Made by a program: the position numbers and the translations under genes
Source of the DNA: Anaerolineae bacterium
GTDB lineage: Bacteria > Chloroflexota > Anaerolineae > DRVO01
NCBI GenBank assembly: GCA_013178015.1
Contig: JABLXR010000030.1
Coordinates: forward strand, 51,238-115,237
DNA length: 64,000 nucleotides
Direction of reading: 5' to 3'
The notes under the pieces: generated by a model
What the model saw: the letters and a program-made list of their open reading frames with translations, nothing else
Told to the model about the DNA's origin: nothing
Database searches by the model: none
Shown: positions 26,612 through 64,000 of the stretch, in pieces
Layout: every line of letters starts with the position of its first letter
How positions within the stretch are numbered: position 1 is the first letter of the stretch

Positions 26612-27189
26612 GGGCTCTCCTCAGCCCCGTGCTCAACAGCATCGCCGGGCGCTTGGCCCGGCTGGGCCTGACCCCCAACAGCCTGACCGTCATTGGGCTG
26701 GTCCTCAACGTCGGCGTGGCCCTCGTGCTGGCTTCCGGGTGCCTCCGGTGGGGGGGCGTGCTCATCCTGGTGGCCAGCCTGGCCGACGGGCTGGACGGGG
26801 CGCTGGCACGTCATACTGGCAGTGTGACTCGGTTTGGAGCCTTCTTTGACTCTACGCTGGACCGCTACGCTGAGGCCGCCCTGTTCACGGGCCTGGTGTG
26901 GCACTTCGCCACGGTCGGAGCGCGCACAGAGGCGGTTCTGGCGGTGGTGGCCCTGTTCGGCAGCCTGGCCGTGTCCTACGCTCGGGCCCGAGCCGAGGGG
27001 CTGGGCATCTCCTGCACGGTGGGGCTCCTGACCAGAGCGGAGAGGATGATAGTGCTGGCGCTGGGCCTGGCGGCAGGGCTGACGCTCGCGACTCTGTGGG
27101 TGTTGGCCGTCTTCACCCACATCACCGCTATCCAGCGCATTCTGCACGTGCACAAGGTGGCCGCAGCGGAGGGGCAGACGCTCCGGTAG
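26593..27189 (+). CDS. CDP-alcohol phosphatidyltransferase (phosphatidylinositol-phosphate synthase-like)
   Basis: Canonical D-x2-DG-x2-AR-x8-G-x3-D-x3-D motif (DGLDGALARHTGSVTRFGAFFDSTLDRYAE). Six TM helices. Overlaps the upstream GT4 gene by 19 nt. Confidence 0.85.
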   Translation: MVSDRLRALLSPVLNSIAGRLARLGLTPNSLTVIGLVLNVGVALVLASGCLRWGGVLILVASLADGLDGALARHTGSVTRFGAFFDSTLDRYAEAALFTGLVWHFATVGARTEAVLAVVALFGSLAVSYARARAEGLGISCTVGLLTRAERMIVLALGLAAGLTLATLWVLAVFTHITAIQRILHVHKVAAAEGQTLR

Positions 27190-30033: not shown

Positions 30034-30409
30034 TTTCCCTCGCCTCCCATTCCGCCAGTGTCTGTCGGTACTCCTCCTCACTGATGATCGTGCCGCCCTG
30101 GGCCTGCTGTGACTCCGGGCGCTTCTGCTTGTCAAAGGTAAGGTCCACCTCGATGGGGACGTAGCAGCGGCGGCTGCCGATCACCGTCTTGTGGCTGCTG
30201 TAGTAGTCGGGGTAGTCGGAACCGCCTGCCGACGTGCTGTGCCACTCGGGGCTGAGGTCGTTGCGCAAGTCGACCCGGAGGGCCAGGGGCTCGCCGCAGG
30301 TGTTGCAGCGGAGATACACGGTGTGCGTCTGGCTCTCGGAGGAGCGAGGTCCACCGGAGAACAGCGCCTTCAGCTTGTCGAGGAAACCCACGTCCTCCCT
30401 CCTACCCAT
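30017..30409 (-). CDS. Small zinc-ribbon protein (Cys-x2-Cys...Cys), hypothetical
   Basis: ATG overlaps the upstream stop (TAATG at 30407-30411). Contains CNTCGEP...RRC and an acidic C-terminus. Lies between the GT39-like gene and prs on the same strand. Confidence 0.55.
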   Translation of the reverse strand: MGRREDVGFLDKLKALFSGGPRSSESQTHTVYLRCNTCGEPLALRVDLRNDLSPEWHSTSAGGSDYPDYYSSHKTVIGSRRCYVPIEVDLTFDKQKRPESQQAQGGTIISEEEYRQTLAEWEARESADEQ

Positions 30410-31887
30410 TACAGGAACCGGCTGACGTAGTATAGCGCCCCGGCCAGGTCTAGTGCCCACAGCGCCAGCAGCGGCAGGGCCGATACCGCCGGCCATCGCC
30501 GTAAGGCCCACCGCCAGACGAAGAGGCCGGCCGCCGCGGCGGCCAGCAGCGCCAGGAGCAGGCCAGGCACATCTCCCCGGGCCCACCCGAGGGCGAACAG
30601 CGCCGCGCCCAGCAGGCCCAGGCCGGCGCAGGCCGCCAGGGGGCGCTCCCGCGCCGTTACCATACCCACCACCATGGCCGCGCTCCACACTGGCAGGGCG
30701 GCGTAGAGGTAACGGCCCTGGTACTGCACGAACTTCATATTATACCAAAGCAAGCCGCAGATCGAGAACGAACCCCAGGCAGCGAGCAGAATGACGTGAG
30801 CTCGCCGACGAACACCCGGCCCGCCCCCGGAGCCGGCAAGCTGCCGCAACAGGTGCGGCGCTCCCGCAATCACCAACCCCAGGACGGCGGTGGCGGACAC
30901 CACGGCCAGGAGCAGGTAGACCGGCTCGTGCATGGGGACGCCCATCCAGCCGAACACGCCCCAGAAGCTCTTGAAGGTGAGGGTAGTGCCCTCGGTAAGA
31001 ACGCGCACCGGACTGAACTCCGCCAGGAGTTCGGCGGTAGTGAGCTGGCTGGCGGCGATGGCGTCGTGACGGGTCAGGCCCAGGGGGTCGCGCAGCCCGT
31101 AGGTGACCAGGTTGCGGGCCACCCAAGGCAGCCAGAGGATGGCGGCCGGCAGGGCGACCCTGGCGCCGGACCTCAGGACCCTCGCCCACGGGGGACGGTG
31201 CAGCCGACGGTGCAACAGCAGGCCAGCCAGCACCAGGGGCACTGCGATGTAGGCGGTGGTCTTGGTGAGGAGGCACAGGCCGAGGAGGATGCCCAAGATC
31301 GTGAGGCGCTTGGGTGCAGGGGCGGGGGAGTGGACGAGGGCGCGCAAGGTCAGCAGGGTCACCGAAGCGGTGAGGGCCTCGGCCAGGACGTCGTTGTTGA
31401 TGCCGGCGCTCATGGCGGTGTGCATGGGTATGAAAGCGACCGTCGCTGCCAGAGCCGCCGCCCGGCCCTGCCGCCGCGGCCAGAGGGCCAGCCCCAAGGA
31501 GTAGGCCATGGCGAGGGCGGCCACGCCGTTGGTGACGGTGAAGAGGCGCAACGCGCGAACCTGGAGGGGTACGGGATCGCCGGCGAAGGCCGTCAGCACC
31601 GGGGCCGCCAGCAGGTAGTAGAGGGGCGGCTGGTGGCTCTCGTAGCGGATGGCACTGACGTCGCTCCCCTCGGGGAAGCCAGCGGCCTTCAGTTGGTCCA
31701 GGTAGCGGGACGGGAAGTCTCCCATCTGGAGCACGGGCAGGGAGCCCTCGATCACCAGATGACGGATGTAGTTGTAGTGGGCCGGCTCGTCGGCCGCCTG
31801 CCACGTCGGGGTGATGACGGCATAGGCGAGGGCAGCGGCTAGGTAGGCCGCCAAGGTCATCGCTATGGGAAGCGTCTGCCTAGTCAC
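30409..31887 (-). CDS. GT-C fold glycosyltransferase, family 39/83-like (ArnT/PMT-like)
   Basis: First-loop DE motif (ADEPAHYNY), PPLYY motif and about 11-13 TM helices, typical of the ArnT/PMT_2 family. Confidence 0.75.
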   Translation of the reverse strand: MTRQTLPIAMTLAAYLAAALAYAVITPTWQAADEPAHYNYIRHLVIEGSLPVLQMGDFPSRYLDQLKAAGFPEGSDVSAIRYESHQPPLYYLLAAPVLTAFAGDPVPLQVRALRLFTVTNGVAALAMAYSLGLALWPRRQGRAAALAATVAFIPMHTAMSAGINNDVLAEALTASVTLLTLRALVHSPAPAPKRLTILGILLGLCLLTKTTAYIAVPLVLAGLLLHRRLHRPPWARVLRSGARVALPAAILWLPWVARNLVTYGLRDPLGLTRHDAIAASQLTTAELLAEFSPVRVLTEGTTLTFKSFWGVFGWMGVPMHEPVYLLLAVVSATAVLGLVIAGAPHLLRQLAGSGGGPGVRRRAHVILLAAWGSFSICGLLWYNMKFVQYQGRYLYAALPVWSAAMVVGMVTARERPLAACAGLGLLGAALFALGWARGDVPGLLLALLAAAAAGLFVWRWALRRWPAVSALPLLALWALDLAGALYYVSRFL

Positions 31888-45961: not shown

Positions 45962-46510
45962 ATGGGCGAGGGTGGCGGATTGCTGACCCAGGGGGCTTAT
46001 GACGATGCCGCCGGTGCTGACGCCGACCGCCGGCGGGTGCGGTCGGTGGGGCCGGGGCAGATGTTGGTCACTACTGACCCAGAGGAAGTGCTGGCGGCCT
46101 ATGGCTTGGGCTCATGTATTGCAGTGCTAGGGTATGAGCCCAAGGCCGGGGTGGGCGGGCTGCTGCATGCACTGCTGCCTCAGAGCTGCCCTGGCGAAGG
46201 CGATGCAGCCAAGTTCGCTGACACCGGGATTCGCCTCCTGGTGGGCGAGATGGAACGCCTGGGATCCGACCGCGACGCCACCGCCTGGTACCTGGTGGGC
46301 GGTGCGGACGTGTTGCAGGGATCGAAGACGACCGCAGGCCTGAACATCGGCAGAGGGAACGTCGCCATGGCGGAGTCCGTCATGAGGGAAGAAGGTATGG
46401 CCATCCGGAGCCGTGAGGTCGGGGGCTCTGTGGCTCGCACGGTCAGATTGAGCATGCGGGACGGTACAGTAACAGTGACGCCGGTAGGCGGAGATGAGCA
46501 GACACTGTGA
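45962..46510 (+). CDS. cheD: Chemoreceptor glutamine deamidase CheD
   Basis: CheD signature GLGSCIAVLGY...GGLLHALLP, ~180 aa. Confidence 0.85.
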   Translation: MGEGGGLLTQGAYDDAAGADADRRRVRSVGPGQMLVTTDPEEVLAAYGLGSCIAVLGYEPKAGVGGLLHALLPQSCPGEGDAAKFADTGIRLLVGEMERLGSDRDATAWYLVGGADVLQGSKTTAGLNIGRGNVAMAESVMREEGMAIRSREVGGSVARTVRLSMRDGTVTVTPVGGDEQTL

Positions 46511-46692
46511 GGGTCGCCGGCAGGCCAGCTTCAGCTTCGCCAGGGGCGGCTCCGGTATCGGAGGCGAACACCGGTGGCCGGACGTCAGCAGGATGGGGCA
46601 CATCGACCAAGGTGTCCGCTGAGGCCCTGAGGGCAGAAGGGAGCGCTCGACGGGCCGTGCAGAGAGACTGTTCGCCCTGGACGAGGAGGCCA

Positions 46693-47754
46693 ATGTCCAC
46701 AACTCGCGTGGTGGTGGCAGATGACTCCGCCTTCGTGCGGTACACCGTCAGCCATCACCTCTCCTGCCAGCCCGACCTGGAAGTAGTGGGGCTGGCGTCC
46801 AACGGGGTAGAGGCGGTGGAGCAGGTGGAGGCCCTGCGCCCCGACGTGGTGGTTCTGGACGTGGAGATGCCGCTAATGGACGGGCTGTCGGCGCTGCGGC
46901 AGGTCATGTCTCGACGTCCGACGCCGGTCGTGATGATGATGAACGGACTCGCCCGCGAGGGAGCTGCTAGCACGGTAGAGGCCCTCGTGTCAGGAGCGGT
47001 GGACTTCATCACCAAACCTGGCCAGCTCACTGGCGTGCATCAGGTGCTGGGCGAGCTGGGCCACAAGGTGCGCCAGGCGGCAGGCGCGCGGGTGCGAGCT
47101 CACCGTCCGCTGCGGCAGCGAGCGTTGTCGCGAGAGGGGGAGAGTGCGGGGCCCTCGGAGCATCTGGTTCTAGTCGGTACCTCGGGCGGAGGACCGGCGG
47201 CGCTAGGCGAGGTGATCGGCAGGTTGCCTGCGGACCTGGACGCGTGCGTGGTGGTGGTGCAGCACATGGGTGCCCCCTTCACCCGGGCGCTGGCCGAGCA
47301 GCTCGACCGCATCTCCCTCCTGCCAGTGAGGGAAGCCGCCGCGGGTGACCGGGTGGAAAGGAGGCAGGTGCTGATCGTACCCGGAGGGAGGTACTTGACG
47401 CTGACCGAGGAGAGAGAACTGTGCCTGACCGCCGGACCGCCAGGCGGCGGGAGGCGGCTGACCCTGGATCTCGCTCTGGAATCGGCGGCGCAAGTGTTCG
47501 GGCGACGGGCGCTGGCGGCGATCCTCACCGGGCTAGGACGCGACGGGCTGGCGGGAGCCCGAGCTCTCAAGGAGCGGGGTGGTCGGGTCCTGGCCCAGGA
47601 TGAGGCCACCAGCGTGTTCTACGAGATGCCGGGCAGCGTCGTAGAGGCGGGCCTGGCCGATGAGGTGGTGCCGCTGGACCTGATGGCCGACACCATAGCG
47701 GAGATGGTGAAAGCGACGGAGCCGCGGCCGGGAGCGAAAGGGCCGGCTGGGTGA
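46693..47754 (+). CDS. cheB: Chemotaxis response regulator protein-glutamate methylesterase CheB
   Basis: REC domain (VVVADDSAFVR...VLDVEMPLMDG). Methylesterase domain (LVLVGTSGGGPAAL...VVVQHM). GAGGAGG Shine-Dalgarno before the ATG. Confidence 0.9.
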   Translation: MSTTRVVVADDSAFVRYTVSHHLSCQPDLEVVGLASNGVEAVEQVEALRPDVVVLDVEMPLMDGLSALRQVMSRRPTPVVMMMNGLAREGAASTVEALVSGAVDFITKPGQLTGVHQVLGELGHKVRQAAGARVRAHRPLRQRALSREGESAGPSEHLVLVGTSGGGPAALGEVIGRLPADLDACVVVVQHMGAPFTRALAEQLDRISLLPVREAAAGDRVERRQVLIVPGGRYLTLTEERELCLTAGPPGGGRRLTLDLALESAAQVFGRRALAAILTGLGRDGLAGARALKERGGRVLAQDEATSVFYEMPGSVVEAGLADEVVPLDLMADTIAEMVKATEPRPGAKGPAG

Positions 47755-48596
47755 ACGACAGCGAGTTCCGCTCTATCACCGCCTACCTGGATCGTGTGCA
47801 CGGGCTGGACCTGAGTGCCTACAAGAGCACGGCCATGAAGCGGCGCCTGGAGGCGTACTTGACGCGAATGCGGGCCGGCAGCTGGGCCGAATACGTGGTC
47901 AGGCTCGAGCGGGAGCCGGAGGAAGGGCACCGCCTGAGGGATTACCTCACCATCAGCGTCACTAGCTTCTTCCGCGATGCCGACAGGTACGAGGTGCTGC
48001 GCCGGGAGATCCTGCCGGAGCTGCTTGACACTACCCGCAGCCTGGCCGCGTGGAGCGCGGGCTGCTCCGATGGGCCGGAGCCCTACACGCTGGCCATGCT
48101 TTTCCACTCCCTGGCGCCCCGGAGACGTGTGCGCATTTGGGCTACAGACATAGACCGGCAGGGACTGGCCAGGGCCAGGGCAGGCGGGCCGTATTCAGCT
48201 TCCGCCATCCAACTGCTGCCGTCTGACCTGTCGTCGCGGTACCTGGTGCCTATGGCCGGCGGATTTGGGGTGGTGCCCTCCCTGGTGAGGCGCGTCACCT
48301 TCCAGGAGCATGACGTGCTGCGGGATCCGATCTCTGGCAGCTTTGACCTGATCGCGTGTCGCAACGTGATCATATACCTCACCGAGGAGGCCAGGACGAG
48401 GCTGTTTGATCGCCTTGCCTCTAGCCTTCGGCCGGGGGGCGTGCTCTTCGTCGGCGCCGCCGAGAGTGTCCCCATGGATCAGGCGCGAGCCTTGGGGTTG
48501 GAGCGGCTGCGGATGTCCTTCTACCGCCGTGTGACGGCAGGAGACAACATCGTCTCCCCCAACCTGTGGGTTGGGATGGGTGTATCTGACGGCTAG
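47751..48596 (+). CDS. cheR: Chemotaxis protein methyltransferase CheR
   Basis: CheR N-terminal helical and SAM-MTase domains (AWSAGCSDGPEPYTLAMLF, IACRNVIIYL). GTG overlaps the cheB stop (GTGA). Confidence 0.9.
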   Translation: MNDSEFRSITAYLDRVHGLDLSAYKSTAMKRRLEAYLTRMRAGSWAEYVVRLEREPEEGHRLRDYLTISVTSFFRDADRYEVLRREILPELLDTTRSLAAWSAGCSDGPEPYTLAMLFHSLAPRRRVRIWATDIDRQGLARARAGGPYSASAIQLLPSDLSSRYLVPMAGGFGVVPSLVRRVTFQEHDVLRDPISGSFDLIACRNVIIYLTEEARTRLFDRLASSLRPGGVLFVGAAESVPMDQARALGLERLRMSFYRRVTAGDNIVSPNLWVGMGVSDG

Positions 48597-48690: not shown

Positions 48691-49272
48691 TCACCCCTCT
48701 TCCAGGGAGATGGCGTCGTAGCGCCAAGGCTGTCGCCAGACGAGACCGGAATGGCCCTCCCAGAGGGCGCCCATGTTCGCGGCCAGGCTCAGAATCCGGT
48801 TCGTGACTTGAGCATCGAGCCTGGCATCCCAACTCAGCCGATCGGCCACCCAGTCGCAGTGGAAGAAGATGCGACAGAGCACTGGGCGAACGGTGTATAC
48901 CTGACAGCGTCCATCCAGGCTGAGGAAGGGGCAACTGGTGGCCTTACCATGCGCCCCGACATCACCATGGCCCTCACCGGTGAGCATGTACGTGCCGGTG
49001 AATGGGCTGAGAGAGCAGTATCTCTCCACTGTCTGTTCCACGGCGCCGCGGAGCGAGGCGAAGTTGCGGGGGCGCTCCAGATACCCGGCCAGGGCGATCA
49101 AGTCGGGCAGAGTGACGGCCACCACCCGGCCTCCGGTGTTCTCAAGAGCGCGGCAGCAGTCGCTCCCGCACTGACGCTGCCGGGTCGGGGGGCAGAGTCC
49201 GGCGGCCTGGCGTTCCAGTTCTTGGACGGCGTCCCAGAGGGTATACGAGGCGGAGGCTCTAGTCTGCCCCAA
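48691..49272 (-). CDS. YkgJ/UPF0153-family putative Fe-S/zinc-chelating protein (CxxCxxCC-type)
   Basis: QCGSDCCR and C..L.GRCQVYTVRPVLCRIFF motifs. Start chosen as TTG at 49272, because all earlier in-frame positions lie inside the LysM gene. The ORF is open to 49467. Confidence 0.6.
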   Translation of the reverse strand: MGQTRASASYTLWDAVQELERQAAGLCPPTRQRQCGSDCCRALENTGGRVVAVTLPDLIALAGYLERPRNFASLRGAVEQTVERYCSLSPFTGTYMLTGEGHGDVGAHGKATSCPFLSLDGRCQVYTVRPVLCRIFFHCDWVADRLSWDARLDAQVTNRILSLAANMGALWEGHSGLVWRQPWRYDAISLEEG

Positions 49273-50722
49273 GGTAGAAGTCTTGTGGCTCCGTGCGAGG
49301 ACCGGCCGACTCGAAGCGGGGCTGGCCGGCGCCAGCGACAGCGATCTCGCGGCCGATGCCCACGTCCCAAAACAGGTGAGCGCCCGCGCCCCAGCGGGCG
49401 ACCAGATCTTCGGTAGATCGCCAGGAAGTAGCCCGAGTCCAGCCTGTGAGGGTATCGCCGGGCTCACCCACGCGCCAGATGTGGACCACGTACCACAGGT
49501 CCGGGGCGAGATCGCCCACTCCGGTCCACATCAGGATGAGCTCGCGGGGGACGACCCTGGCACCGCCCCGCGGCGAGAGAGGCTCCAGGGCTCGAGGCTG
49601 GGCCGGCCCGCCCAGGGACAGCAGGGAGGCGGTGGCCGTGGGGGCGGCCGCCAAGGCGGTGGCTCCGGCGGTGGGGACAGCCTCGGCCGCCGCCGCGGTA
49701 GGGGTGGGATCCGGGCCGCCCGACTGCGAGGGCACGGGAACTCTCACTTTCTGGCCCACGCTCAATATGGTGTACTTGGTAAGCCCGGGGTTCGCAGCCA
49801 GGATCTCCTCCAAGGTGGTACCGTACTTGTTGGCCAGATAACCCAGAGTATCGCCCCGCTCGATGGCGTGCTCGATGAACTGGGGCTCGGGGGTGGCAGT
49901 GGGCTCTGGTTCAGGTGCAGCTGAGGCCGTTTCCGCAGTCGGCGTGGGGACAACGATCTTCTGCCCCAGGCTCAGGATGCTGTTGCGGGTGAGCCCGGGG
50001 TTGGCAGCTATGATGTCGCTAACGGTGGTACCGTACTTATCGGCCAGATACAGGAGGTTGTCACCCGTTTCAACGGTGTGTACGAGGGGCTCGGCAACCG
50101 GGAGGGGCTCCTGGTCGGCAGCCTCGCCGGATGCTGAAGCAGGTATGACGATCTCCTGCCCCACCCGCAGGATGGAGCGCTCCGTCAGGCCCGGGTTGGC
50201 AGCTAGGATGTCCTGCACCTCCAAGTCGTACTGGAGGGCGATGGAGCCCAGCACGTCTCCCGATTGAACCACGTGGACCCTAGGCCCGGTCGTGGGGGCA
50301 GGGGTGTCCAGCGGCTCTGGAGTTGGGGTCTGCGTCCCGGTAGGAGAGGACGTGGCCGTAGGGGTAGGGGGGACTGGAGTGGACGTGACCAATCGGACCG
50401 TCCCAGGGGAGGGTGTGGCCGCGTCCACAGCTTGCTGTGCCGTTTCCTTCGCCGGGGGCGAGAGGGCCGCCATGGCCACAGCGGCTGGCTTCCCTGGCGT
50501 CGCGTTCGGAGCGCCGGACGAAGGCTCTGCGCTCCCCGACCTATCGCGCAACCCGGCCAGCACCGCTCCTGCTACCATCGCCAGTGCCACCAGAGCCAGG
50601 GCCGGCTGAAGGTAGCTGGGTGACCGCAGTTCCTGTCCGCACAGGAGGCAGGACCGAGCCTGCTGGGCGACGCGAGCCCCACAACGGGGGCACCGACGAG
50701 GCTCTCGGTTAATGGTTGCCAT
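49259..50722 (-). CDS. LysM-repeat protein with N-terminal zinc ribbon and TM anchor (three LysM domains, Pro/Thr-rich linkers, C-terminal globular domain)
   Basis: N-terminal CPRCG...CLLCG zinc ribbon then TM. Three LysM motifs (VQSGDVLGSIALQY, VETGDNLLYLADKYGTT, IERGDTLGYLANKYGTT). Confidence 0.8.
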   Translation of the reverse strand: MATINREPRRCPRCGARVAQQARSCLLCGQELRSPSYLQPALALVALAMVAGAVLAGLRDRSGSAEPSSGAPNATPGKPAAVAMAALSPPAKETAQQAVDAATPSPGTVRLVTSTPVPPTPTATSSPTGTQTPTPEPLDTPAPTTGPRVHVVQSGDVLGSIALQYDLEVQDILAANPGLTERSILRVGQEIVIPASASGEAADQEPLPVAEPLVHTVETGDNLLYLADKYGTTVSDIIAANPGLTRNSILSLGQKIVVPTPTAETASAAPEPEPTATPEPQFIEHAIERGDTLGYLANKYGTTLEEILAANPGLTKYTILSVGQKVRVPVPSQSGGPDPTPTAAAAEAVPTAGATALAAAPTATASLLSLGGPAQPRALEPLSPRGGARVVPRELILMWTGVGDLAPDLWYVVHIWRVGEPGDTLTGWTRATSWRSTEDLVARWGAGAHLFWDVGIGREIAVAGAGQPRFESAGPRTEPQDFYLGAD

Positions 50723-52442
50723 GGGGATTCCTGCTAGTATGATCCCGCCCGGGCGACAGGCCTAGAACGGCAATGCCCATCACTGCTGCTAGACTAACCC
50801 AATCTGAGGCCAGGCGCAAGGGGGTCTCACCGAAATGGATGGTGACCCGGTGTTCGCCCGCCGGCAGGTCGAGGGCGATGACCCCTAGGGGGCCTGCTGG
50901 GCGGACCGGTGCAGGAACCCCGTCCACGTAAGCCCGCCATCCCGGGTAGTAGTACGTGTGGAAACGAAGCTCCCCCGCCGTCTCCGAGCGCACCCGGACG
51001 ATCTGCACGTGTCCCCCCAGGTGGAGGGGCTCGACCGAGGCGCCCGGTGCGTCTGTCTCCGCCAGAGGTAGCGCCTCTCCGGCCAGGTAGGCGGCAACTT
51101 TGGGCGAATCCTGAGGCATGTGCTGGGTCCAGGCGGTCATGCCTCGCATGTCGGTGTACTCGAGCTCGAACTCCACCGTGCCCACTGGCTGTTCGGCGCG
51201 GGGGTCGGGGGCGGTATGCTGGGGGCGGGCGTAGGGCAGGCTCGCGACCACGACGGCCAGCGCCAGCAGCAATGCGCTCCCCTGCCCCGCTCGATCGGCC
51301 AGGCGGGCACCGGCGATGGCGGCCAGGCCGGCGGCACAGAGCGCAACTATCCCGAGCAGGCGCCAGGGGAACTGCGCCAGCGACAATAGGGACACGGCGC
51401 GCCATATCGCCCCACTGGCTCCGGTCATCAGGAAGGTGTAGGTCACGAGCCCGAGACCGAGCAGCACCGCCGCAGGGCGGAAGCAGCGACTGCGAGTCCC
51501 CAGGGCCAGGCCCGCCAGGGACAGGGCTACGGGGGCGAGGCCCTGCTGGAACGGCATGGTATCTTCAGGGCCAGCCACAGCGTAGCCGTAATCCCACAGT
51601 GGCGACAACAGCTGGCCCGGGTAGACGAAGTGATCGGTGAGGTTGTAGGTGGCCCTGGTCCACTGCTCCTGCCTGATGTAACCGCGCTCGGCCAGCGAGG
51701 GGATGAGGGAGAAGGCTGCCAGAGCGACCCCTAGAGCCCCGGCCGCGATCGGCCCCAGCCACGCTCTCGCCGACGGCAGGCGGCCGGAGGCAGCCAGGGC
51801 GATGATGATGGCGGCTCCCAGGAGAGGGGTGAAGAGCAAGGCGGTGACGTTGTGGGCCGCCAGCAGCAGCCCGTAGGTGGCGGCGGCAGCGGCGATTCGA
51901 CGGCGTGAGGGAGCCGTCGCCAGTGACCAGAAAGCCCACAAAGCCCAGGGGAAGAGGGAGAGGGCCCAGGACTCGGCCAGGGCGGCGCGAACGTAGATGT
52001 CCACGAATCGGTAAGGAGCATAGGTGTAGACGACGGCAGCCACCGCCGCCGCGGCGCCGAACCCTCTCGAATCGGTCGGTGCCTGACGTAGCAGCGCTTC
52101 GGCCAGGAGGAACATGCCCACGCAGGACACCAGGATAGACAGGGCGAAAGCCGCTTTGATGGCAGCGGCGATCCCCAGGCCGGTCAGGTGGAACCCCTCA
52201 GCCACGTAGTAGGCCAGGGGGGAGTAGAAGACGAAGGTGGGGTAACCGTAGCCCAGGGCATGGTCGGGCCCCCAGCGGGGGATGAGTACGCCGTCGGCGA
52301 CGGCCCGGTCGAACTGGACCAGGAAGAACAGGGTATGGGGTCCGTCGTGGGCGCCCAGAAAGTAGCCCGGGGCCAGCAGAGGCCAGGCGGCGAAGACGGC
52401 CAGGATGAGGGCCAGGCCTAGGTAACGGCGGCGCTCGCTCAT
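50709..52442 (-). CDS. Polytopic GT-C-like membrane protein, paralog 1 of 3 (putative envelope glycosyltransferase; PTPS-related/DUF-type)
   Basis: Many TM helices. Conserved N-terminal block shared with paralog 2 (PGYFLGAHDGPHTLFFLVQFDRAVADGVLIPRWGPDHALGYGYPTFVFYSPLAYY). Probable ATG at 52442 overlapping the upstream stop (ATGA). Confidence 0.7.
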   Translation of the reverse strand: MSERRRYLGLALILAVFAAWPLLAPGYFLGAHDGPHTLFFLVQFDRAVADGVLIPRWGPDHALGYGYPTFVFYSPLAYYVAEGFHLTGLGIAAAIKAAFALSILVSCVGMFLLAEALLRQAPTDSRGFGAAAAVAAVVYTYAPYRFVDIYVRAALAESWALSLFPWALWAFWSLATAPSRRRIAAAAATYGLLLAAHNVTALLFTPLLGAAIIIALAASGRLPSARAWLGPIAAGALGVALAAFSLIPSLAERGYIRQEQWTRATYNLTDHFVYPGQLLSPLWDYGYAVAGPEDTMPFQQGLAPVALSLAGLALGTRSRCFRPAAVLLGLGLVTYTFLMTGASGAIWRAVSLLSLAQFPWRLLGIVALCAAGLAAIAGARLADRAGQGSALLLALAVVVASLPYARPQHTAPDPRAEQPVGTVEFELEYTDMRGMTAWTQHMPQDSPKVAAYLAGEALPLAETDAPGASVEPLHLGGHVQIVRVRSETAGELRFHTYYYPGWRAYVDGVPAPVRPAGPLGVIALDLPAGEHRVTIHFGETPLRLASDWVSLAAVMGIAVLGLSPGRDHTSRNPHGNH

Positions 52443-54478
52443 GGCCGCATGGCTCCGGGGCGGCAGAGGATGCGGGCCACCGCGGCCAGGCCGTACGCCA
52501 TCCCCGTGAGCAAGGTCAGACCGGTTCCCAGCCGCCGGACGGGCGTGTCCTCGAATACCAGAAGCAGGACATGGCGGCCTTGGGGCACAGGCACGCTGAT
52601 GAGCCCCAGTTCTCCCTCCGGCACGACCGGGGCCGTGCCGGAGACCTCGCCTGTGTCCTCGTCCAGGATGTAGGCGTTCCAGCCGGGGTGGTAGAAGGTG
52701 TGGAAGCGGATGACCTGAGCGTCGTCTTCGGCCTGGAACCACACCCTCTCGTAGGTGGTACCCATCTCCAGCGAATGCACCGCCAGGCGACCGGTAGCGT
52801 AGGCTTGGACGTAGTCCACCTTGGTGGTGATCTCGATCCCGGCCATGATCTGATCTGCCAGCGGCGACCAGCGGGGGATCTCCTGCACCCAGGCGGTGGA
52901 GCCGGTCATCTCATCGGCGCTCTGTTGGAAGCGCATCAGTCCCTGAAGGGACACGGGTCCCTCAGGTGGGGGCCGGACCTCGCTGTGCAAATAGGGGTAG
53001 ACCGGCAGGATGACCAGCAGGGCCCAGAGCCCGGTGAGGGCCAGGGCGCTGCGATCGGGGTGCCAGCGGGTGAAAGGGCCCGTTCCTAGGAAGGCAAGGC
53101 AGACGATGGTGAGCGCCAGCAGTCGCCAGGGGAACTGAGCGAACCTCACTAGCCCCAGGGCATCCCACACTGGTTCGGAGAGGGGGAGCATCAGGAAGAC
53201 GACGCCGAGGGTGACGGCGCCTAGGTACAGGGCACTCCGGCGCCACGCCTGCGGCAGCCGCGGCCAGTAAAGAAGGCTAAGCGCTGCCAGCGTCAGAGGG
53301 GCCAGGCCCAGCTGGAAGGACATGCCATCGTCCGGTCCCGGGAGGCTCACTCCGAACCCCCAGTCGAGGCGGAAGAGCTGGAAGGGATAGACGAAGTGGT
53401 GGCGATACTCGTAGTAGCCACCGACCCACTGGTCGGTGCGGACGTAAGCGTACTCCAGGAAGGCGGGCAGCCAGAAGATGGCGCTCAGCCCCAACCCCAG
53501 GAGCACGGCGCCGGCAGCAGGCGCCATGGTATGGATGGCGTGACCCAGAACCGAGGGCCAGGACTGGCGGGAGAGCGGCCGCCACGTCGGGGTCGAGCGG
53601 CAGAGGTGCCAGGCTCGGAGCAGAGTGTAGCCGCCCAGGATGGGAGAGAAGAGCAGCGCCACCAGGTTGCTGCTCAGCATCAGCCCGGCGTAGGCTAGCC
53701 CAGCCAGCAGAACCCCCGTGACGTTCGGGAGACGATGGGCTCGTCCCAGATCTGCCTGGGCCCCTGCCGTAGGGGCGAACCTTGTGTTCGCCCGTTTCAA
53801 CGCCATGTTCGCCCGCTTGTGCCTCAAGCGGATGCGTTGCGGGCGAACACAAGGTTCGCCCCTACGGTCGGTGGGCCGGGGTGTGGGTTCGGCCGTATGG
53901 TCGCTGGGGTGGGGTGCCATGGGTGGCGCCGGGGAGCGTTGGCGCAGGCCCGGGTAGAGGCGCCCGAAGGCCCAGAGGCACAGGGGCACAAAGGCCAGGG
54001 CCACCGTCTCTGCCAGGGAAGCCCGCACGTAGAGGTCGGCCAGATGATAGGGAGCGTAAAGGTACAAGAGGGCCCCCAGCAGCGCCCCGGGCGGATGGCT
54101 GTAGAGGCGAAGCCACAGGTAGGCCGTGAGGGCCGAGGCCACCGCTGCCAGGCCGAACACCCCCTTGACGGCCTCTACCAGACCCAGACCAAGCAGATGC
54201 AGGGCCTCGCCCAGGTAGGAGGACAGTGGGCCGTAGATGTTGAAGAAGGGATAGCCGTAGCCGAAGGTGAAGTCTGGCGCCCACCGGGGATAGAGGATGC
54301 CGTCCTGGATGGCGCGGTCGAACTGATGCAGGAAGTAGACGCTGTGGCGGGCGTCCTGGGCGCCCCAGTGGTAGCCGGGCATGAACAGGGGCCCGACGCT
54401 GAATAGGGAGAGGGCCAGGAGGAGTAACACCCAGACCCACTCCGGCACCGCCTCTATCGCGGTCCGATCAGTCCTCAC
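52439..54478 (-). CDS. Polytopic GT-C-like membrane protein, paralog 2 of 3, with ~70-aa lineage-specific insertion
   Basis: N-terminal block PGYHWGAQDARHSVYFLHQFDRAIQDGILYPRWAPDFTFGYGYPFFNIYGPLSSY is homologous to paralog 1. The insertion (…PTDRRGEPCVRPQRIRLRHKRANMALKRANTRFAPTAG…) coincides with the palindromic repeat at 53769-53865. Confidence 0.7.
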   Translation of the reverse strand: MRTDRTAIEAVPEWVWVLLLLALSLFSVGPLFMPGYHWGAQDARHSVYFLHQFDRAIQDGILYPRWAPDFTFGYGYPFFNIYGPLSSYLGEALHLLGLGLVEAVKGVFGLAAVASALTAYLWLRLYSHPPGALLGALLYLYAPYHLADLYVRASLAETVALAFVPLCLWAFGRLYPGLRQRSPAPPMAPHPSDHTAEPTPRPTDRRGEPCVRPQRIRLRHKRANMALKRANTRFAPTAGAQADLGRAHRLPNVTGVLLAGLAYAGLMLSSNLVALLFSPILGGYTLLRAWHLCRSTPTWRPLSRQSWPSVLGHAIHTMAPAAGAVLLGLGLSAIFWLPAFLEYAYVRTDQWVGGYYEYRHHFVYPFQLFRLDWGFGVSLPGPDDGMSFQLGLAPLTLAALSLLYWPRLPQAWRRSALYLGAVTLGVVFLMLPLSEPVWDALGLVRFAQFPWRLLALTIVCLAFLGTGPFTRWHPDRSALALTGLWALLVILPVYPYLHSEVRPPPEGPVSLQGLMRFQQSADEMTGSTAWVQEIPRWSPLADQIMAGIEITTKVDYVQAYATGRLAVHSLEMGTTYERVWFQAEDDAQVIRFHTFYHPGWNAYILDEDTGEVSGTAPVVPEGELGLISVPVPQGRHVLLLVFEDTPVRRLGTGLTLLTGMAYGLAAVARILCRPGAMRP
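53769..53865. repeat. Perfect 26-bp inverted repeat pair (GTAGGGGCGAACCTTGTGTTCGCCCG ... CGGGCGAACACAAGGTTCGCCCCTAC) flanking a 45-bp partly palindromic core; MITE/REP-like element embedded in-frame in a coding sequence
   Basis: Read directly. Same 26-mer family as at 2208-2233. Each arm is itself a small hairpin (GGGCGAAC...GTTCGCCC). Confidence 0.7.
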
Positions 54479-56018
54479 GGCCCAGCTCCACCGCGGTGGT
54501 TCCGTCCGACAGGGTCAGCCGTTCCCCCGTTCCCAGGTCATACAGACCCACTAACACCCGATAGCCCTCCCGAGGGCCATCGAGGTCCACGTGGACGAGA
54601 TGGTCGTCCACCACCACTTCGCCCGGGCGCCAGGACGTGGTCGGGCGGGTGCCGTCCACGGGCCAGGAATCGCGCTGGCCCCACTTGCGATCGGCCTGAT
54701 CCACCACGTGCACGAACACGGTGTAGTTGCGCTCCAGGGGCTGGGTGGCTTGCCAGAACAGACGCAGCCTGGGAGTAGCCCCGTGGCGCAAGGGGCCGTG
54801 GAGCTCGGCTCGTACCAGGAGTATGCGTCCGTCGTCGAAGGCCGCCAGGGGGCGGGCGGCCGGCGTCACTGGGCTCAGGGGGACATCCAGAAAGGGCAGG
54901 GCCAGAAGGAGGGCGAGGAGAGCCAGGGCCCCTCCGGAGAGCGCCTGGGTGGGCAAGAGCTGGACCACGGGCGGGGCGGAGGCCCACAGGAGCACGAAGG
55001 AAGCAAGGGCCACCAACTGCCAGGGACCGTCCAGGGCCCATGCGAGGCGCCCTTCCCACAGCGGGCGCGCTAACTCGGTGGACAGGAGCAGCAGCACGAC
55101 AGCGACCGCCCCCACCACGACACACCGGGCGCGGAGACCGGGCTGCACGAGCAGGCACGCGGCGGCGAAGAGCCCGACGGGGAGGAGGCCCAGTGTCAGG
55201 GGAGCGGGTACGCCCGGACCCCAGGGGGCGCTGTGCGCGGCGTAGCCGGCCGTGTGCCCGAGCCACTGGTAAGGCCAACTGAACTGGCGGAACGATGCCG
55301 ACGCAGTGCCCGGTGCGGCGATTAGACCAGCAGTTCCGGTCAGGAGCAGCCCGACCAGTGGCCGCAGGTTCACGCGGCGGTGGGCTACCAGGGCGACGGC
55401 TGCCAGAACCGCCCCGGCGATAAGGGCGAACCCGGGATGGGCTAGCCCCAGCGCCAGGCCCGGCAGTATCGGGGCCACCGAGCGCCACGAGGTTGCGCCC
55501 CCAGGCGCTGGGTAAGCCAAAGCCAGCGCCAGCCAGGGCAGCATCCCGAGGGCGAGGGACCCCCCTGGCCAACCGCGCACGTAGATGGACGCCAGTACCA
55601 TAGGCGAGCCGGCCCAGGCCAAAGCTAACCCAAGCGCAATGCTGCCCCCGGTCGCACCGCTCCGGTGGCCTCGGAAGAGGGCGAGCGCTCCGCCGACGGC
55701 CAAGAGCACGGCCAGGGCGTAGACCGCCTTCACGGCGCTCGGTCCGTCGGCGCCCATCAGGCGGAAGAGGAATGCCAGGCAGTAGGACAGGACGCCGTCG
55801 CCACCTGCAGAGCCAGTTAGGGAGGATGCGGGCAAGCCGTCAATGGGCCGGCCAGCGGCTTCCCAGGCGTAGAGGGTGTACACCGGCTGGAAGCCGGAGT
55901 GGGGCTGGAAGTACCCGGGGTAGCCCAGGGGTGCCAGCAGGAAGCCACTGAGCAGGAGCAGGGAGGCGGCGACGCGCCATCCCTGGCCCGACGCCCTGCG
56001 GTCCGCGGTTGCGCTCAC
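54468..56018 (-). CDS. Polytopic GT-C-like membrane protein, paralog 3 of 3 (more divergent)
   Basis: TM-rich. Shares the GYPGYF...Y..W N-terminal theme. Start chosen as GTG at 56018 to avoid overlap with the HD gene; the ORF is open to 56231. Confidence 0.6.
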   Translation of the reverse strand: MSATADRRASGQGWRVAASLLLLSGFLLAPLGYPGYFQPHSGFQPVYTLYAWEAAGRPIDGLPASSLTGSAGGDGVLSYCLAFLFRLMGADGPSAVKAVYALAVLLAVGGALALFRGHRSGATGGSIALGLALAWAGSPMVLASIYVRGWPGGSLALGMLPWLALALAYPAPGGATSWRSVAPILPGLALGLAHPGFALIAGAVLAAVALVAHRRVNLRPLVGLLLTGTAGLIAAPGTASASFRQFSWPYQWLGHTAGYAAHSAPWGPGVPAPLTLGLLPVGLFAAACLLVQPGLRARCVVVGAVAVVLLLLSTELARPLWEGRLAWALDGPWQLVALASFVLLWASAPPVVQLLPTQALSGGALALLALLLALPFLDVPLSPVTPAARPLAAFDDGRILLVRAELHGPLRHGATPRLRLFWQATQPLERNYTVFVHVVDQADRKWGQRDSWPVDGTRPTTSWRPGEVVVDDHLVHVDLDGPREGYRVLVGLYDLGTGERLTLSDGTTAVELGRED

Positions 56019-56074: not shown

Positions 56075-56662
56075 CTAGCCGGGCTCGCCCGCCAGGCCCA
56101 GATCGTCGGCGATGCCCTGCATAGCCTCGAGCACGACGGCTATGTGCTCGTTGAGTTCCACCCCCAGCTCGGCAGCGCCTTGCTCGATGTCCTGCCGGTT
56201 GATGGCGGCAGCGAAGGCTTTGTCCTTCCACTTGTTGCGCACGGACTTCACCTTGACGTCCATGATGGACTTAGAGGGGCGCACCAGGGCCACGGCCGAG
56301 ATGAGCCCGGTAAGCTCGTCCACGGCGAAGAGGGCCTTGCGTAGCAGGGTGTCCCGGGGAACGCCAGCGTACTGAGCGTGGGAGAGGACATCCTGGACGA
56401 CCTCCTCCGGGTAGCCGCGTTCGCGCAGGATGCGGGCCCCGGCGAAGCAGTGCCACCTTTCCTGCGGCAGGTCGCCGCCCATCTCCGGGTGCTGCTCGAA
56501 GTCGAAGTCGTGGACCAGGCCGATAGCGCCCCAGTATTCCTCGTCCTCGCCGAACCGGCGAGCGTAAGCGCGCATAGCTGCCTCCACGGCGAGCATGTGC
56601 CGGCGCAGGCTAAGGCTTTGAATGTGCTCGGTCACCAGGCTCCAGGCCTCGTCACGGGTCAT
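56075..56662 (-). CDS. HD-domain metal-dependent phosphohydrolase
   Basis: H...HD motif (LRRHMLAVEAAM...GLVHDFDF) and downstream conserved His/Asp (HCFAGARIL, AVDEL). Confidence 0.8.
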   Translation of the reverse strand: MTRDEAWSLVTEHIQSLSLRRHMLAVEAAMRAYARRFGEDEEYWGAIGLVHDFDFEQHPEMGGDLPQERWHCFAGARILRERGYPEEVVQDVLSHAQYAGVPRDTLLRKALFAVDELTGLISAVALVRPSKSIMDVKVKSVRNKWKDKAFAAAINRQDIEQGAAELGVELNEHIAVVLEAMQGIADDLGLAGEPG

Positions 56663-56730
56663 GTCTGCTGCTCCGCATGGGATAGGCTATTATGTTCGCC
56701 GCCCGCGGCCCGGGCAACCAGGGGAATGGA

Positions 56731-57992: not shown

Positions 57993-58312
57993 GGGTGCGC
58001 CTCCTGTGCGGGCATGACCGGACGCGGCTTCGCGCGGCACCCTCCTGCCCCTGGCCGGGTGCCACATGCGTAAGCGGGCGCAGTCAACCGGAGGGCCCAC
58101 GGGAGACCGTCGGCGAGAGGTGCAGGACAAGACACCTTCTGCTGCCGGATCCGCCTCAAGTATAGCGCGGGCAAGGGGATCCCGCAGCTCGAGAGCCATC
58201 GAGCTCACCGCCTGGAGCGAGGGCGGCCGGCGGAGTATAGTATGACCCCGGACAGATGCGGACCGGGACAGCCGGTGCCCGCTCGTCAAGGTGGGTACCA
58301 GGGGAGGCAACG

Positions 58313-59722
58313 ATGTTTCAGAGGGCCCTGCTCAGCGATTCCGATGTGCCAGTACTGGCGGACGCGGTCACGGAGATACTGGAACGCGTGGGGGTGCTGT
58401 GTCAGAACGACGAGATGATGGAGGCGCTGGAAGCGTGGGGCGCTACCGTGGACCGGGGGCGGCAGGAGGTGCGCTTCCCCCGTCGCCTGGTGGAGGAGTT
58501 CGCCTCGGGGCTCCGGGCGGAGTACGGCGGTCGCGACGAGGGGCAGCCCCGACTGAAGGCGCCGGAGCGCCCCGGCCTGGGCACCCAGGTGGCCCAGTTC
58601 TATCTCGATGACGAGACGGGGGAGCGCCGTGGGGGAACGCGCCAGGACCTGATCCGCCTGACCAAGTTCGGCGCCGTCTTGCACCCGGAGCACGCCGTGG
58701 GGCATTCGCTGCTGTTGCAGGACGTACCTCCCCTGGTGGAGCCCCTGGAAGCCGGCCTCATCCTGGCCGAGTACGCCCCCATCCCAGGGGAGCCCTTCGC
58801 CTGGGAGGCGCGGCAGGTGCCCTATCTGCTGGAGATGGGGCACGAGCTGGGGATAGAGAACTGGTTCACGCTAGGAGCCATCTGCTTCTCCCATCCGCTG
58901 CGCTTCGACAAGGACGTGACCGACCGGTTCGTGCTGATGGCCAGGCTGGGCCACCCGATCGGGCTGACGGGCATGCAGGTGGCGGGGGCCACCACGCCTG
59001 TCACCGTGGCCGGCTTCGTGGCCGTGAGTGCAGCCGAGTACGTGGCCACCTGGATCGCGGGGCGGGCTCTCAACCCGTCGGTGCCGCTGAGAGGCAGCAT
59101 CTGGGCAGCCACTCTGGACATGCGCGGAGGCGACGCCAGTTACAGCGCTCCGGACGCCATGCTCCGCGCCTTCGCCCTCAACGAGTTCCTCCGGCGCTGG
59201 TGTGGGTTGGCGGTCTACATCGGAGGCGGGGAGTACGCCAGCGCCAAGGTGCCGGGCCTGTACGCCACCCTGGAGAAAGCCTACAAGGCCCTGACCATCG
59301 CGGCCTTCAGCGGCCACCACCCGCCGATCGGGCAGGGGATGGTGGAGACGGGCAAGAGCATCAGCCTGGTGCAGCTGCTGCTCGATTACGAGATGACTAC
59401 TGCCCTAGAAAGCCTGACGCAGGAGTTCGAGGTCAACGCAGAGACCATCGGGATGGACACCATCCTCGCGGTAGGCTATGGCCTGCAGGGCAGCTACCTG
59501 ACCACCGAGCACACTCTCAGGCATTACCGGGCCAACACCTGGATGCCTCGCTTCGCCGATCGCAGCGGCTATCAGGGCAGCAAGACGGAGGAAGAGGCCC
59601 TGGCCAAGGCGCGGGCGCGGATACAGGAGCTGCTGTCGCAGTATCGCAAGCCGGAACGCGACCCGGCGGTCTTGGAACGGATGCGCGCCGTGGCGGAGCG
59701 GGCACGGCGGGAGCTGCTATAG
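58313..59722 (+). CDS. MttB-superfamily methyltransferase, second paralog (non-pyrrolysine)
   Basis: Alignable along its full length with the 17573-19060 product (e.g. EALEAWGATVD / KALESWGARVD; HSLLLQDVP / HSLLLSDVP). GGGGAGG Shine-Dalgarno before ATG 58313. No internal TAG. Confidence 0.8.
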   Translation: MFQRALLSDSDVPVLADAVTEILERVGVLCQNDEMMEALEAWGATVDRGRQEVRFPRRLVEEFASGLRAEYGGRDEGQPRLKAPERPGLGTQVAQFYLDDETGERRGGTRQDLIRLTKFGAVLHPEHAVGHSLLLQDVPPLVEPLEAGLILAEYAPIPGEPFAWEARQVPYLLEMGHELGIENWFTLGAICFSHPLRFDKDVTDRFVLMARLGHPIGLTGMQVAGATTPVTVAGFVAVSAAEYVATWIAGRALNPSVPLRGSIWAATLDMRGGDASYSAPDAMLRAFALNEFLRRWCGLAVYIGGGEYASAKVPGLYATLEKAYKALTIAAFSGHHPPIGQGMVETGKSISLVQLLLDYEMTTALESLTQEFEVNAETIGMDTILAVGYGLQGSYLTTEHTLRHYRANTWMPRFADRSGYQGSKTEEEALAKARARIQELLSQYRKPERDPAVLERMRAVAERARRELL

Positions 59723-59911: not shown

Positions 59912-60200
59912 CGGCTTGCCCGGGATACGCCTCTGGCGATTTCCCTGCCGCGGAACTGCCGCACCTGCAGGGCCGGCGGAAGCTCTGCGTCGGAGCCGGT
60001 GGCACGCCGGGCGGCGGGCCGAGCGCCGGTATCGAGTCACCGCCAGCGGGGGCACGAGAAATGGCGCTATGTACCGCGAGTCCTGAACGCGCTGGGGCGG
60101 TGGAGTGCCGGCAGACCTGGTGGGCTCGCCGCTTGCCACTGGCTGCTGGTTGTCTTACTCTTGTGGGGCAATGGGTAAGGTGCTGGCTGGGGGTGGCAAG

Positions 60201-60449
60201 ATGCTGACAACCCTTTCCTCGAAGGGGCAGGTCGTAATACCGAAGGACATCAGGAAGGCCTTGAGGCTTAGCCCAAGGACCAGGTTCCACGTCAGGGTCG
60301 TTGACGGCAGTATCGTCCTGGACCCCATCGGCACCTCGGCGATTGACGCGGCCTGTGGCATGTTCCAGGGGGTGGACCTGCTGTCGGACCTGGAGGAGGA
60401 GCACCGCAGAGAGGTCGCCGCCGATGAGCAAGAGCCGCTTCATCCTTGA
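60201..60449 (+). CDS. AbrB/MazE/SpoVT-family antitoxin
   Basis: Swapped-hairpin motif LSSKGQVVIPKDIRKALRL. Followed by, and overlapping, a PIN-domain gene. Confidence 0.7.
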   Translation: MLTTLSSKGQVVIPKDIRKALRLSPRTRFHVRVVDGSIVLDPIGTSAIDAACGMFQGVDLLSDLEEEHRREVAADEQEPLHP

Positions 60450-60849
60450 CACCTGGGCGATCCTGGCGTTTCTCCAGTCCGAAGAGCCCGCCGTAGCTCG
60501 CGTCAGGGAGCTGCTGACAGATGCCGAAGCGGGCGTGGCCGACGCCTGCATGTCGCTCATCAGCCTGGGCGAGGCGTTCTACATCGTCGCCAGGCGGCGG
60601 GGACGCAAACAGGCGAGAGCCACCGTAGCCGCCATCCGCAGCCTTCCGATCGGCCTTCTGGACGTGGCCGAGGAGCCAGTGCTCGCCGCCGCAGAAGTGA
60701 AGTCCAGGTACGCCATCTCCTATGCAGACGCCTTCGCGGTGGCAGCGGCGGCGGAGTTGGCGGGGACACTCGTCACCGGAGACCCGGAGATCGTGCGTTG
60801 GTGTCACGGGATCGTCGGGATCGAGCCTCTGCGCCGGGCGGGTCGGTAG
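60424..60849 (+). CDS. PIN-domain ribonuclease toxin (VapC-like)
   Basis: Conserved acidic residues in ILDTWAIL..., ...SYADAFAVAAA... and LVTGDPE; 141 aa. Overlaps the antitoxin by 26 nt. Confidence 0.8.
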   Translation: MSKSRFILDTWAILAFLQSEEPAVARVRELLTDAEAGVADACMSLISLGEAFYIVARRRGRKQARATVAAIRSLPIGLLDVAEEPVLAAAEVKSRYAISYADAFAVAAAAELAGTLVTGDPEIVRWCHGIVGIEPLRRAGR

Positions 60850-63639: not shown

Positions 63640-64000
63640 ATGAGGAGGGCAGCGACTGCGCCGGCAAGTGCGCGCGTGTGGCTCTTTCTGGAGTCCCGCC
63701 TCACGCTCGATCTGCTATGGACTCTGGTTGTTCCAGTGGCTCTGCTTGTGAGCCTGAACCTGAAGGTTGTCCACCCGAACGACTTCTGGTGGCACCTTCG
63801 CATGGGTGAGATCGTGTTGGAGGAAGGCCGAGTTCCCACCACCGATCGCTTCTCGTTCACTCACCATGGCGAGGCCTGGGTGGACCAGAATTGGCTCATG
63901 CAGGTGTTCATGTTTGCGGTGTACCGGCTGGGGGGCCTACCGCTCAACATCGCCGCGCACGCCCTGATGGTGACGGCGGGGTACTGCTGGCTGCTCGTTG
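63640..64000 (+). CDS. Polytopic membrane protein, 3'-truncated by window end (GT-C-like N-terminus?)
   Basis: GGGAGGAGG Shine-Dalgarno before the ATG. Two TM helices flank the HPNDFWWHLRMGE loop. The frame is open to the end of the window. Confidence 0.55.
   Translation, partial: MRRAATAPASARVWLFLESRLTLDLLWTLVVPVALLVSLNLKVVHPNDFWWHLRMGEIVLEEGRVPTTDRFSFTHHGEAWVDQNWLMQVFMFAVYRLGGLPLNIAAHALMVTAGYCWLLV

Follow-up and report, generated by a model that had tools for sequence, protein, structure and literature searches.

A conserved tandem of three GT-C-type membrane protein genes, probably coupled to a LysM protein gene, in Anaerolineae

On the outer side of the membrane, characterised glycosyltransferases of the C-type fold (GT-C) use a sugar bound to a lipid carrier and pass it to an extracytoplasmic acceptor, and their active sites are typically marked by acidic residues of the first outside loop. 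The mycobacterial embCAB genes encode three GT-C arabinosyltransferase paralogs in tandem, and paralogous GT-C proteins form hetero-complexes in the EmbA-EmbB heterodimer and in yeast Pmt1-Pmt2. Some enzymes of the YfhO family of GT-C proteins glycosylate teichoic acids within systems made up of a GT-A enzyme, a flippase and a GT-C enzyme (PMC5836110, PMC8035078), and streptococcal enzymes of YfhO type add sugars to disordered, Ser/Thr-rich stretches of membrane proteins, with two GT-C paralogs encoded next to their substrates in the Pgf cluster (PMC12041528). Another member of the GT-C clan, PF10131 (PTPS_related), is listed as a family of unknown function (PMC7801869), and a literature search covering PF10131 and envelope work on GT-C proteins of Chloroflexi turned it up in that capacity only. 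The subject here is a tandem of three minus-strand genes, named A, B and C, in a 64,000-nucleotide stretch of an Anaerolineae bacterium contig (JABLXR010000030.1; the whole stretch is called the window). On balance, the three genes, which lie in the order C-B-A on their strand, are likely to form an ancient module of cooperating extracytoplasmic GT-C glycosyltransferases of the PTPS_related/YfhO-like branch that is coupled with a LysM/zinc-ribbon protein. The genes on which this reading depends are as follows.

54468-56018, minus strand: gene C, 516 residues, GTG start; about 11 transmembrane (TM) helices and a C-terminal extracytoplasmic Ig-like beta-sandwich (residues ~385-516)
52439-54478, minus strand: gene B, 679 residues, GTG start; full signature of the first outside loop (loop 1); in-frame insert of about 75 residues
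50709-52442, minus strand: gene A, 577 residues, ATG start; GT-C protein of PTPS_related/YfhO-like type
49259-50722, minus strand: gene for a LysM/zinc-ribbon membrane protein, downstream of A; three Pfam LysM matches and a zinc ribbon

The three open reading frames named in the original prediction are all found in the window on the minus strand, both in the list of open reading frames and, for A and C, in the public annotation of the source metagenome-assembled genome, in which the two proteins (HPY83_12565, HPY83_12575) match with 100% identity and coverage. All three proteins are polytopic homologs that share a GT-C core (clan CL0111). A scores 32.1 bits against PF10131, above the gathering cut-off of 26.4 bits, and most of its 319 homologs in a large protein database carry the same label, with PF09586 (YfhO) and PF13231 (PMT_2) labels also present; the homologs with an organism label in their source name are from Anaerolineae or Caldilineae. 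The kinship with PF10131 extends to distant C orthologs, those of loci L013 and L020 passing the cut-off with 33.9 and 30.1 bits, whereas in the window B stays under it at 18.4 bits (16-23.5 bits for B orthologs) and the Pfam scan returned no match at all for C. The Pfam model begins after loop 1 and hence does not cover the loop-1 signature. Among the GT39/PMT families (PF02366, PF13231), no PMT or PMT_2 match was obtained for A, B or C at E values up to 1; the B ortholog of L013 passes the PMT_2 cut-off with 34.5 bits.

At the level of structure the relationship is much clearer for A than for C. The AlphaFold model of A (predicted local distance difference test score, pLDDT, 92.6; predicted template modelling score 0.93) has GT-C enzymes as all of its 28 best Foldseek matches in the PDB, including Emb, AftD, AftA and Pmt structures and, among the entries, the EmbA-EmbB and Pmt1-Pmt2 hetero-complexes. 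AftD is the best match of all, despite a score of A against the AftD-like family (PF11847) of 16 bits that does not reach the cut-off of 26 bits. The model of C (pLDDT 80) gives weak matches to STT3, ArnT and AftA in its membrane part and to Ig-like sandwiches in its C-terminal domain. A profile of the A family found no meaningful match among PDB sequences, the structural relatives being visible at the fold level only. The initial description of the proteins as GT-C-like is thus well supported by the PF10131 score of A and by its fold matches, and the family searches found no transporter family, an assignment that the original prediction had named as its refutation.

Compared with the YfhO systems (CsbB/GtcA/YfhO; PgtC2, PgfM1/PgfM2), A has in common the GT-C core, an extracytoplasmic sandwich with the PGWxAYVDG motif and a terminal TM helix, and many A homologs carry PF09586 matches. 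The arrangement of the Pgf cluster, with two GT-C paralogs beside Ser/Thr-rich substrates, also resembles that of B-A beside a Thr/Pro-rich LysM protein. However, A itself scores only 13.8 bits against YfhO (cut-off 28.5), the match being limited to the C-terminal PGWxAYVDG segment; moreover, no GT2 or GtrA gene is adjacent in the window, the host belongs to the Chloroflexota rather than the Firmicutes, and a third, degenerate paralog is present. The Emb and Pmt systems are likewise built from paralogous GT-C proteins, but the similarity to them is at the fold level only (10-19% identity), the Emb proteins are ~1,050-1,090 residues long with other periplasmic domains, and a complex of A, B and C is putative.

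According to the model and the distribution of charges, A has a cytoplasmic N-terminus (MSERRR) followed by TM helix 1, and in the model the first outside loop (residues 24-90) contains two short helices. Ten further TM helices follow, interrupted on the outside by a helix at residues 143-151 (YxPYxxxDxYVR) and by a large loop at 252-301, and then a periplasmic beta-sandwich (406-540) with the YfhO-like PGWxAYVDG motif and a terminal TM helix. Since a crude hydropathy count of TM segments proved noisy, the numbers of helices were read from the models; the 12 or more that had been predicted for each protein agree with A (about 12) but not with C, which has about 11 and is without a C-terminal anchor helix. 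The segment from D33 to D60 of A lies outside the membrane, as judged from the model and the positive-inside pattern. In 19 A and 19 B orthologs D33, H36, R56, W57, GYGYP, E82, D148, R152, E157, E252, Q260 and R361 are invariant, and D45, D60 and W261 are kept in 15-19 of the 19 sequences of each type. The acidic residues of the first loop, whose conservation had been suggested as a check on the GT-C assignment, are therefore well conserved in A and B, D33 in every sequence of both types. By this pattern D33 of A may be the catalytic base, and D33 of A and D42 of B are candidate catalytic residues.

The degree of kinship among the three proteins is uneven. Pairwise comparison makes A and B clear paralogs (31% identity, E 4e-71), and both have the loop-1 signature. 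In pairwise BLAST C matches A weakly (E 1e-6, over 91 residues only) and B more weakly still. When a profile of 22 C-type proteins is aligned with one of 114 A-type proteins, hhalign gives a probability of 100 and E 1.9e-55 over 470 columns, the homology spanning the whole membrane core, and by this comparison C is a true but distant paralog of A and B. The original prediction of three paralogs with a common N-terminal loop signature thus largely fits A and B but goes too far for C, which has lost the majority of the A/B invariant residues. C keeps only the start of the loop (A-P-L-x-x-P-G-[YF]) and lacks the H-x-x-x-F-L-x-Q-F-D-R-A, P-R-W-x-P-D and G-Y-G-Y-P motifs.

The losses in C are seen throughout the 18 C-type orthologs that were compared. 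Ser stands at the D33 position in 15 of them, and the residue at the H36 position varies; none of R56, W57, D60 and GYGYP is present; Thr, Ala, Ser or Val takes the place of D148, and Gln that of R361; and E252, Q260 and W261 fall in a deletion. The residues that remain are K96, the YVRG motif, W347 and P-W360, and the first-loop acids are represented by E53 alone, which is present in 16 of the 18 sequences. In the C protein of the window and its close relatives the YxPYH and AE motifs are degraded as well, whereas the distant C orthologs that pass the PF10131 cut-off retain both. C is also the fastest evolving of the three, with a mean within-type identity of 43% compared to 54% for A and 59% for B. 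This combination of residue loss and fast evolution fits a non-catalytic or a re-specialised subunit and proves neither.

The last ~130 residues of C form an extracytoplasmic domain that differs from that of A. This beta-sandwich (54468-54860, residues ~385-516; motif YTVFVHVVD...WGQxDS.P..G..PTS.W.PGE) matches no Pfam family and, in a search against PDB sequences, no solved relative. Chloroflexota loci contain it very often (L041, L053, L071 and others), as many as 13 matches falling within a single 18-kb locus, and a full hidden Markov model search with the C profile finds 3,289 protein-library representatives at E values up to 1e-30. About 52 of the best 145 representatives are fusion proteins of 900-1400 residues, in which an A-type core and an A-type sandwich are followed by a two-helix TM hairpin that brings the chain back outside and by two to four C-type sandwiches. 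The six fusions that were read directly all have Asp at the D33 position (H-D-[AG], A-D-G or D-D-G), and four of them have GYGYP. These proteins therefore combine the loop-1 signature (H-D-[AG] ... GYGYP), the A-type sandwich and the C-terminal domain of C in one polypeptide, whereas the same parts are found in separate proteins here. The fusion of what is split between A/B and C at this locus is the best clue at hand to a joint action of C with A and B.

The association of the three genes is old. A scan for C-type genes in one genome per species finds a full-length gene in ~22 loci, all from Anaerolineae or other Chloroflexota, and with tblastn a B-type and then an A-type gene are found directly downstream of C in every such locus with enough flanking sequence, the identity of C across these loci falling to 31%. 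In the relatives the C/B/A junctions either overlap or are less than 35 nt apart. Each type is monophyletic in a neighbour-joining tree (A 19/19, B 19/19, C 18/18), and the identities between types (39%, 27% and 26%) are lower than those within types. Because the types are monophyletic and less similar to each other than among themselves, and because the order is the same in ~22 loci, the duplications predate the divergence of these Anaerolineae, and on this comparative evidence C-B-A is an ancient, fixed module of three separate orthologous groups. In one locus (L005, 4393-7800 of a 360-kb contig) several short gene calls stand upstream of A in place of intact C- and B-type genes, which could reflect frameshifts, pseudogenes or sequencing errors, and A and the LysM gene are intact.

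Within the window the start of A and the stop of B share ATGA, and the start of B overlaps the end of C by 11 nt, as can be read directly from the sequence and as had been predicted. The single operon proposed for C-B-A is backed by these overlaps and by the conserved gene order. The LysM gene, absent from the original prediction, overlaps A by 14 nt and is thus a fourth coupled gene. The best explanation of this layout is that C-B-A would be co-transcribed and translationally coupled with it. The LysM gene lies directly after A in L001, L003, L007, L009 and L011 and a few hundred bases downstream of it in L005 and L024-L027, so that the two are coupled or adjacent in at least 10 loci.

The unit may extend further on both sides, and the remaining features of the region are as follows.

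56689-56717, minus strand: sigma-70-like promoter match upstream of the HD gene, by consensus only
56075-56662, minus strand: HD-domain gene (Pfam HD), ending 56 nt upstream of C
53767-53867, strand not assigned: inverted repeat of a dispersed palindromic element in gene B, with perfect 28-nt arms and a 45-nt spacer
48691-49230, minus strand: CxxCxxCC gene (PF03692, YkgJ-like; Pfam match), after the LysM gene

Contigs of close homologs have the same order HD, C, B, A, LysM, CxxCxxCC, the HD gene being kept upstream of C in L001, L003, L007, L008 and L009 and the CxxCxxCC gene after the LysM gene in L001, L003, L009 and L011. The HD gene is possibly the first gene of the transcription unit, and the CxxCxxCC gene may be a member of it. 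The weak sigma-70-like site just upstream of the HD gene is the only one on the minus strand, two having been found in the region against 0.5 expected, and a terminator scan gave none that was convincing; the consensus used in both scans may not apply to this phylum. The start codon of the CxxCxxCC gene is uncertain, the longest open reading frame (48691-49467, minus strand) overlapping the LysM gene by ~200 nt.

The LysM protein begins with a zinc ribbon, which is followed by a single TM helix, a linker rich in Thr and Pro, three LysM domains and a C-terminal region of ~120 residues. The PTPT positions of the linker are invariant among orthologs, as is the cytoplasmic zinc ribbon (CPRC...CLLC). 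The C-terminal domain (GGPAQPRALEPLSP...LWYVVHVW...GWTRANSWRP...PRFEPAGPRTEPQDFYL) is also conserved and has no Pfam match. The protein is a candidate acceptor or wall-targeting partner of the module.

B is longer by ~75 residues than its orthologs (599-616 residues), from which the extra segment is absent. The insert (residues ~178-255, window positions 53715-53945) is in frame, rich in Arg and Lys, and contains the inverted repeat CCGTAGGGGCGAACCTTGTGTTCGCCCG, whose perfect 28-nt arms (53767-53794 and 53840-53867) are each a small hairpin in themselves; a third copy with one mismatch is intergenic at 2208-2232. It lies at the turn between TM helices 4 and 5, on the cytoplasmic side according to the A model and the positive-inside pattern, and B retains all of the residues invariant in A and B. 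In view of its frame, its position and the retained residues, it seems that a dispersed palindromic element has inserted into a cytoplasmic loop and been tolerated there, and the B protein is probably functional. The encoded peptides GEPCVRP and ANTRFAPT resemble those of a repeat that is found in many Chloroflexota open reading frames.

To judge from fold and topology, and by analogy with characterised GT-C enzymes, A and B would use a polyprenyl-phosphate-linked sugar on the outer side of the membrane and would pass it to an extracytoplasmic acceptor, with A, B and C acting together either as a hetero-oligomer or in consecutive steps. The chances are about even that C is mainly an acceptor-binding or scaffolding subunit, a role suggested by the fact that it has lost most of the A/B invariants and yet has a beta-sandwich that is elsewhere fused to A-type enzymes; otherwise it would be an enzyme of different specificity. 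As for the acceptor, a wall or membrane glycopolymer is a serious possibility, at somewhat below even odds. The Thr/Pro-rich linkers of the adjacent LysM protein are a tentative choice, reasonable as a candidate because of the precedents of YfhO-type and Pgf enzymes on Ser/Thr-rich regions and because of the invariant PTPT linker. The glycopolymer is at least as likely as the LysM protein, which in that case would be a peptidoglycan-targeting partner.

Several points weigh against a cooperating glycosyltransferase module. Pfam scans of the ~57 open reading frames of the window found no GT2 polyprenyl-phosphate sugar synthase and no GtrA-type flippase, so that the adjacency expected of a transmembrane glycosylation system with several components is not seen there, although such partners can be encoded elsewhere in a genome, and among the loci compared L003 and L017 alone have a GT2 gene close to the module. 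The literature search showed PF10131 to be a family with no biochemically characterised member. Only gene order, coupling and domain fusions point to a physical association of A, B and C, and the triplet is not obligatory for the family, as B-A occurs without C in L004 and A alone in L006. C may still be active, as it retains the YVRG motif and, in 16 of 18 orthologs, a loop-1 acid, E53, which corresponds to D45 of A. Finally, Thr/Pro linkers occur frequently and do not necessarily carry glycans.

In the most substantial alternative, A, B and C work independently of each other as GT-C enzymes that differ in donor or acceptor and are co-regulated only, for instance to add consecutive sugars to one polymer, without a stable complex and with C catalytic by way of another loop-1 acid. 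An acid pair (D-L-E or W-E) does persist at the D45 position of C-type proteins, as does YVRG, their more distant orthologs exceed the cut-offs of PF10131 and PMT_2, C is missing where there is a B-A pair or a lone A gene, and Firmicute genomes contain several independent GT-A/GT-C pairs (PMC8035078). However, a fixed order with overlapping junctions over deep divergence is more typical of subunits made in a fixed ratio, about ten polar positions at which A and B never vary have been lost from C, which also evolves fastest (43% compared to 54% and 59%), and the C-type C-terminal domain is fused to A-type cores elsewhere, which makes independence possible but rather unlikely. A narrower form of the cooperative reading, a Chloroflexota-specific heterotrimer of catalytic A and B with a non-catalytic, acceptor-binding C, dedicated to O-glycosylating or glycan-loading the co-encoded LysM/zinc-ribbon protein on peptidoglycan, is more doubtful still; if true, it would provide a pseudo-enzyme subunit in a bacterial GT-C complex and the first function for PF10131.

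Two further explanations were rejected. The original prediction saw in the tandem triplication the diversification of an envelope glycan polymerase or transferase system, which may be read as a recent event in this lineage, and three homologous genes do stand in tandem in a phylum where arrays of GT-C-like genes are frequent (e.g., L041, L053, L071). The monophyly of the types over 18-19 genomes, the lower identity between than within types and the constant order in ~22 loci leave a recent, lineage-specific origin very improbable. That the proteins are not glycosyltransferases, but polytopic proteins of another kind, such as transporters, that resemble GT-C by chance, might be argued from B and C falling under every Pfam cut-off and from the lack of any sequence-level match to a solved structure. 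This is scarcely credible in the face of 28 top fold matches that are all GT-C enzymes and of the PF10131 score of A, and in the NCBIfam scan of A, B and C the sole match, which is also the only transporter-like one, is to CrcB in B, at 13.6 bits against a cut-off of 99.

A number of other genes at related loci and elsewhere in the window are of note. The small GT2 genes of L017 (14701-15429, minus strand, 242 residues), which adjoins the module, and of L003 (525-1379, minus strand, 284 residues), ~2.6 kb away from it, are candidate polyprenyl-phosphate sugar synthases for the system, and GT4 genes are found near the C-B-A module in L004 and L017. At 25328-27189 of the window (plus strand) a GT4 glycosyltransferase gene is followed directly by one for a CDP-alcohol phosphatidyltransferase, a pair that we take to recall glycolipid synthesis of the phosphatidylinositol-mannoside type. 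The gene at 30409-31887, described initially as GT39/ArnT-like, is assigned by Pfam to DUF2142 (PF09913) instead, a family that is presumably in the GT-C clan, and the truncated open reading frame at 63640 has neither a Pfam match nor profile similarity to the A family. The claim that the window is rich in GT-C enzymes accordingly rests on four genes and not five.

Other neighbours are of more varied kinds. Two genes of the MttB family (trimethylamine methyltransferase-like) lie at 17573-19060 and 58256-59722, both on the plus strand, and in L001 two MttB genes are likewise found upstream of the HD-C-B-A cluster. A chemotaxis run of CheD, CheB and CheR (45962-48596, plus strand) is convergent with the operon, and these neighbours recur in L003. 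A MazE/AbrB-type antitoxin gene and a PIN-domain gene at 60105-60849 (plus strand) form a VapBC-like toxin-antitoxin pair.

The proteins are, in modest terms, new members of a known family that is functionally uncharacterised, in a phylum where arrays of GT-C paralogs are common, and the finding is an improved annotation rather than a surprise. Its value is that of a concrete set of genes from a family to which no function has been assigned: proteins of the PF10131/YfhO-like type are very numerous in Chloroflexota, where they have no known function, and to our knowledge the envelope chemistry of Anaerolineae is poorly known. The fixed C-B-A-LysM unit defines a set of genes with two candidate catalytic residues and with candidates for an accessory subunit and for the acceptor. 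If the proposed complex is true, the theme of paralogous hetero-complexes seen in EmbA-EmbB and Pmt1-Pmt2 would be extended to another bacterial phylum.

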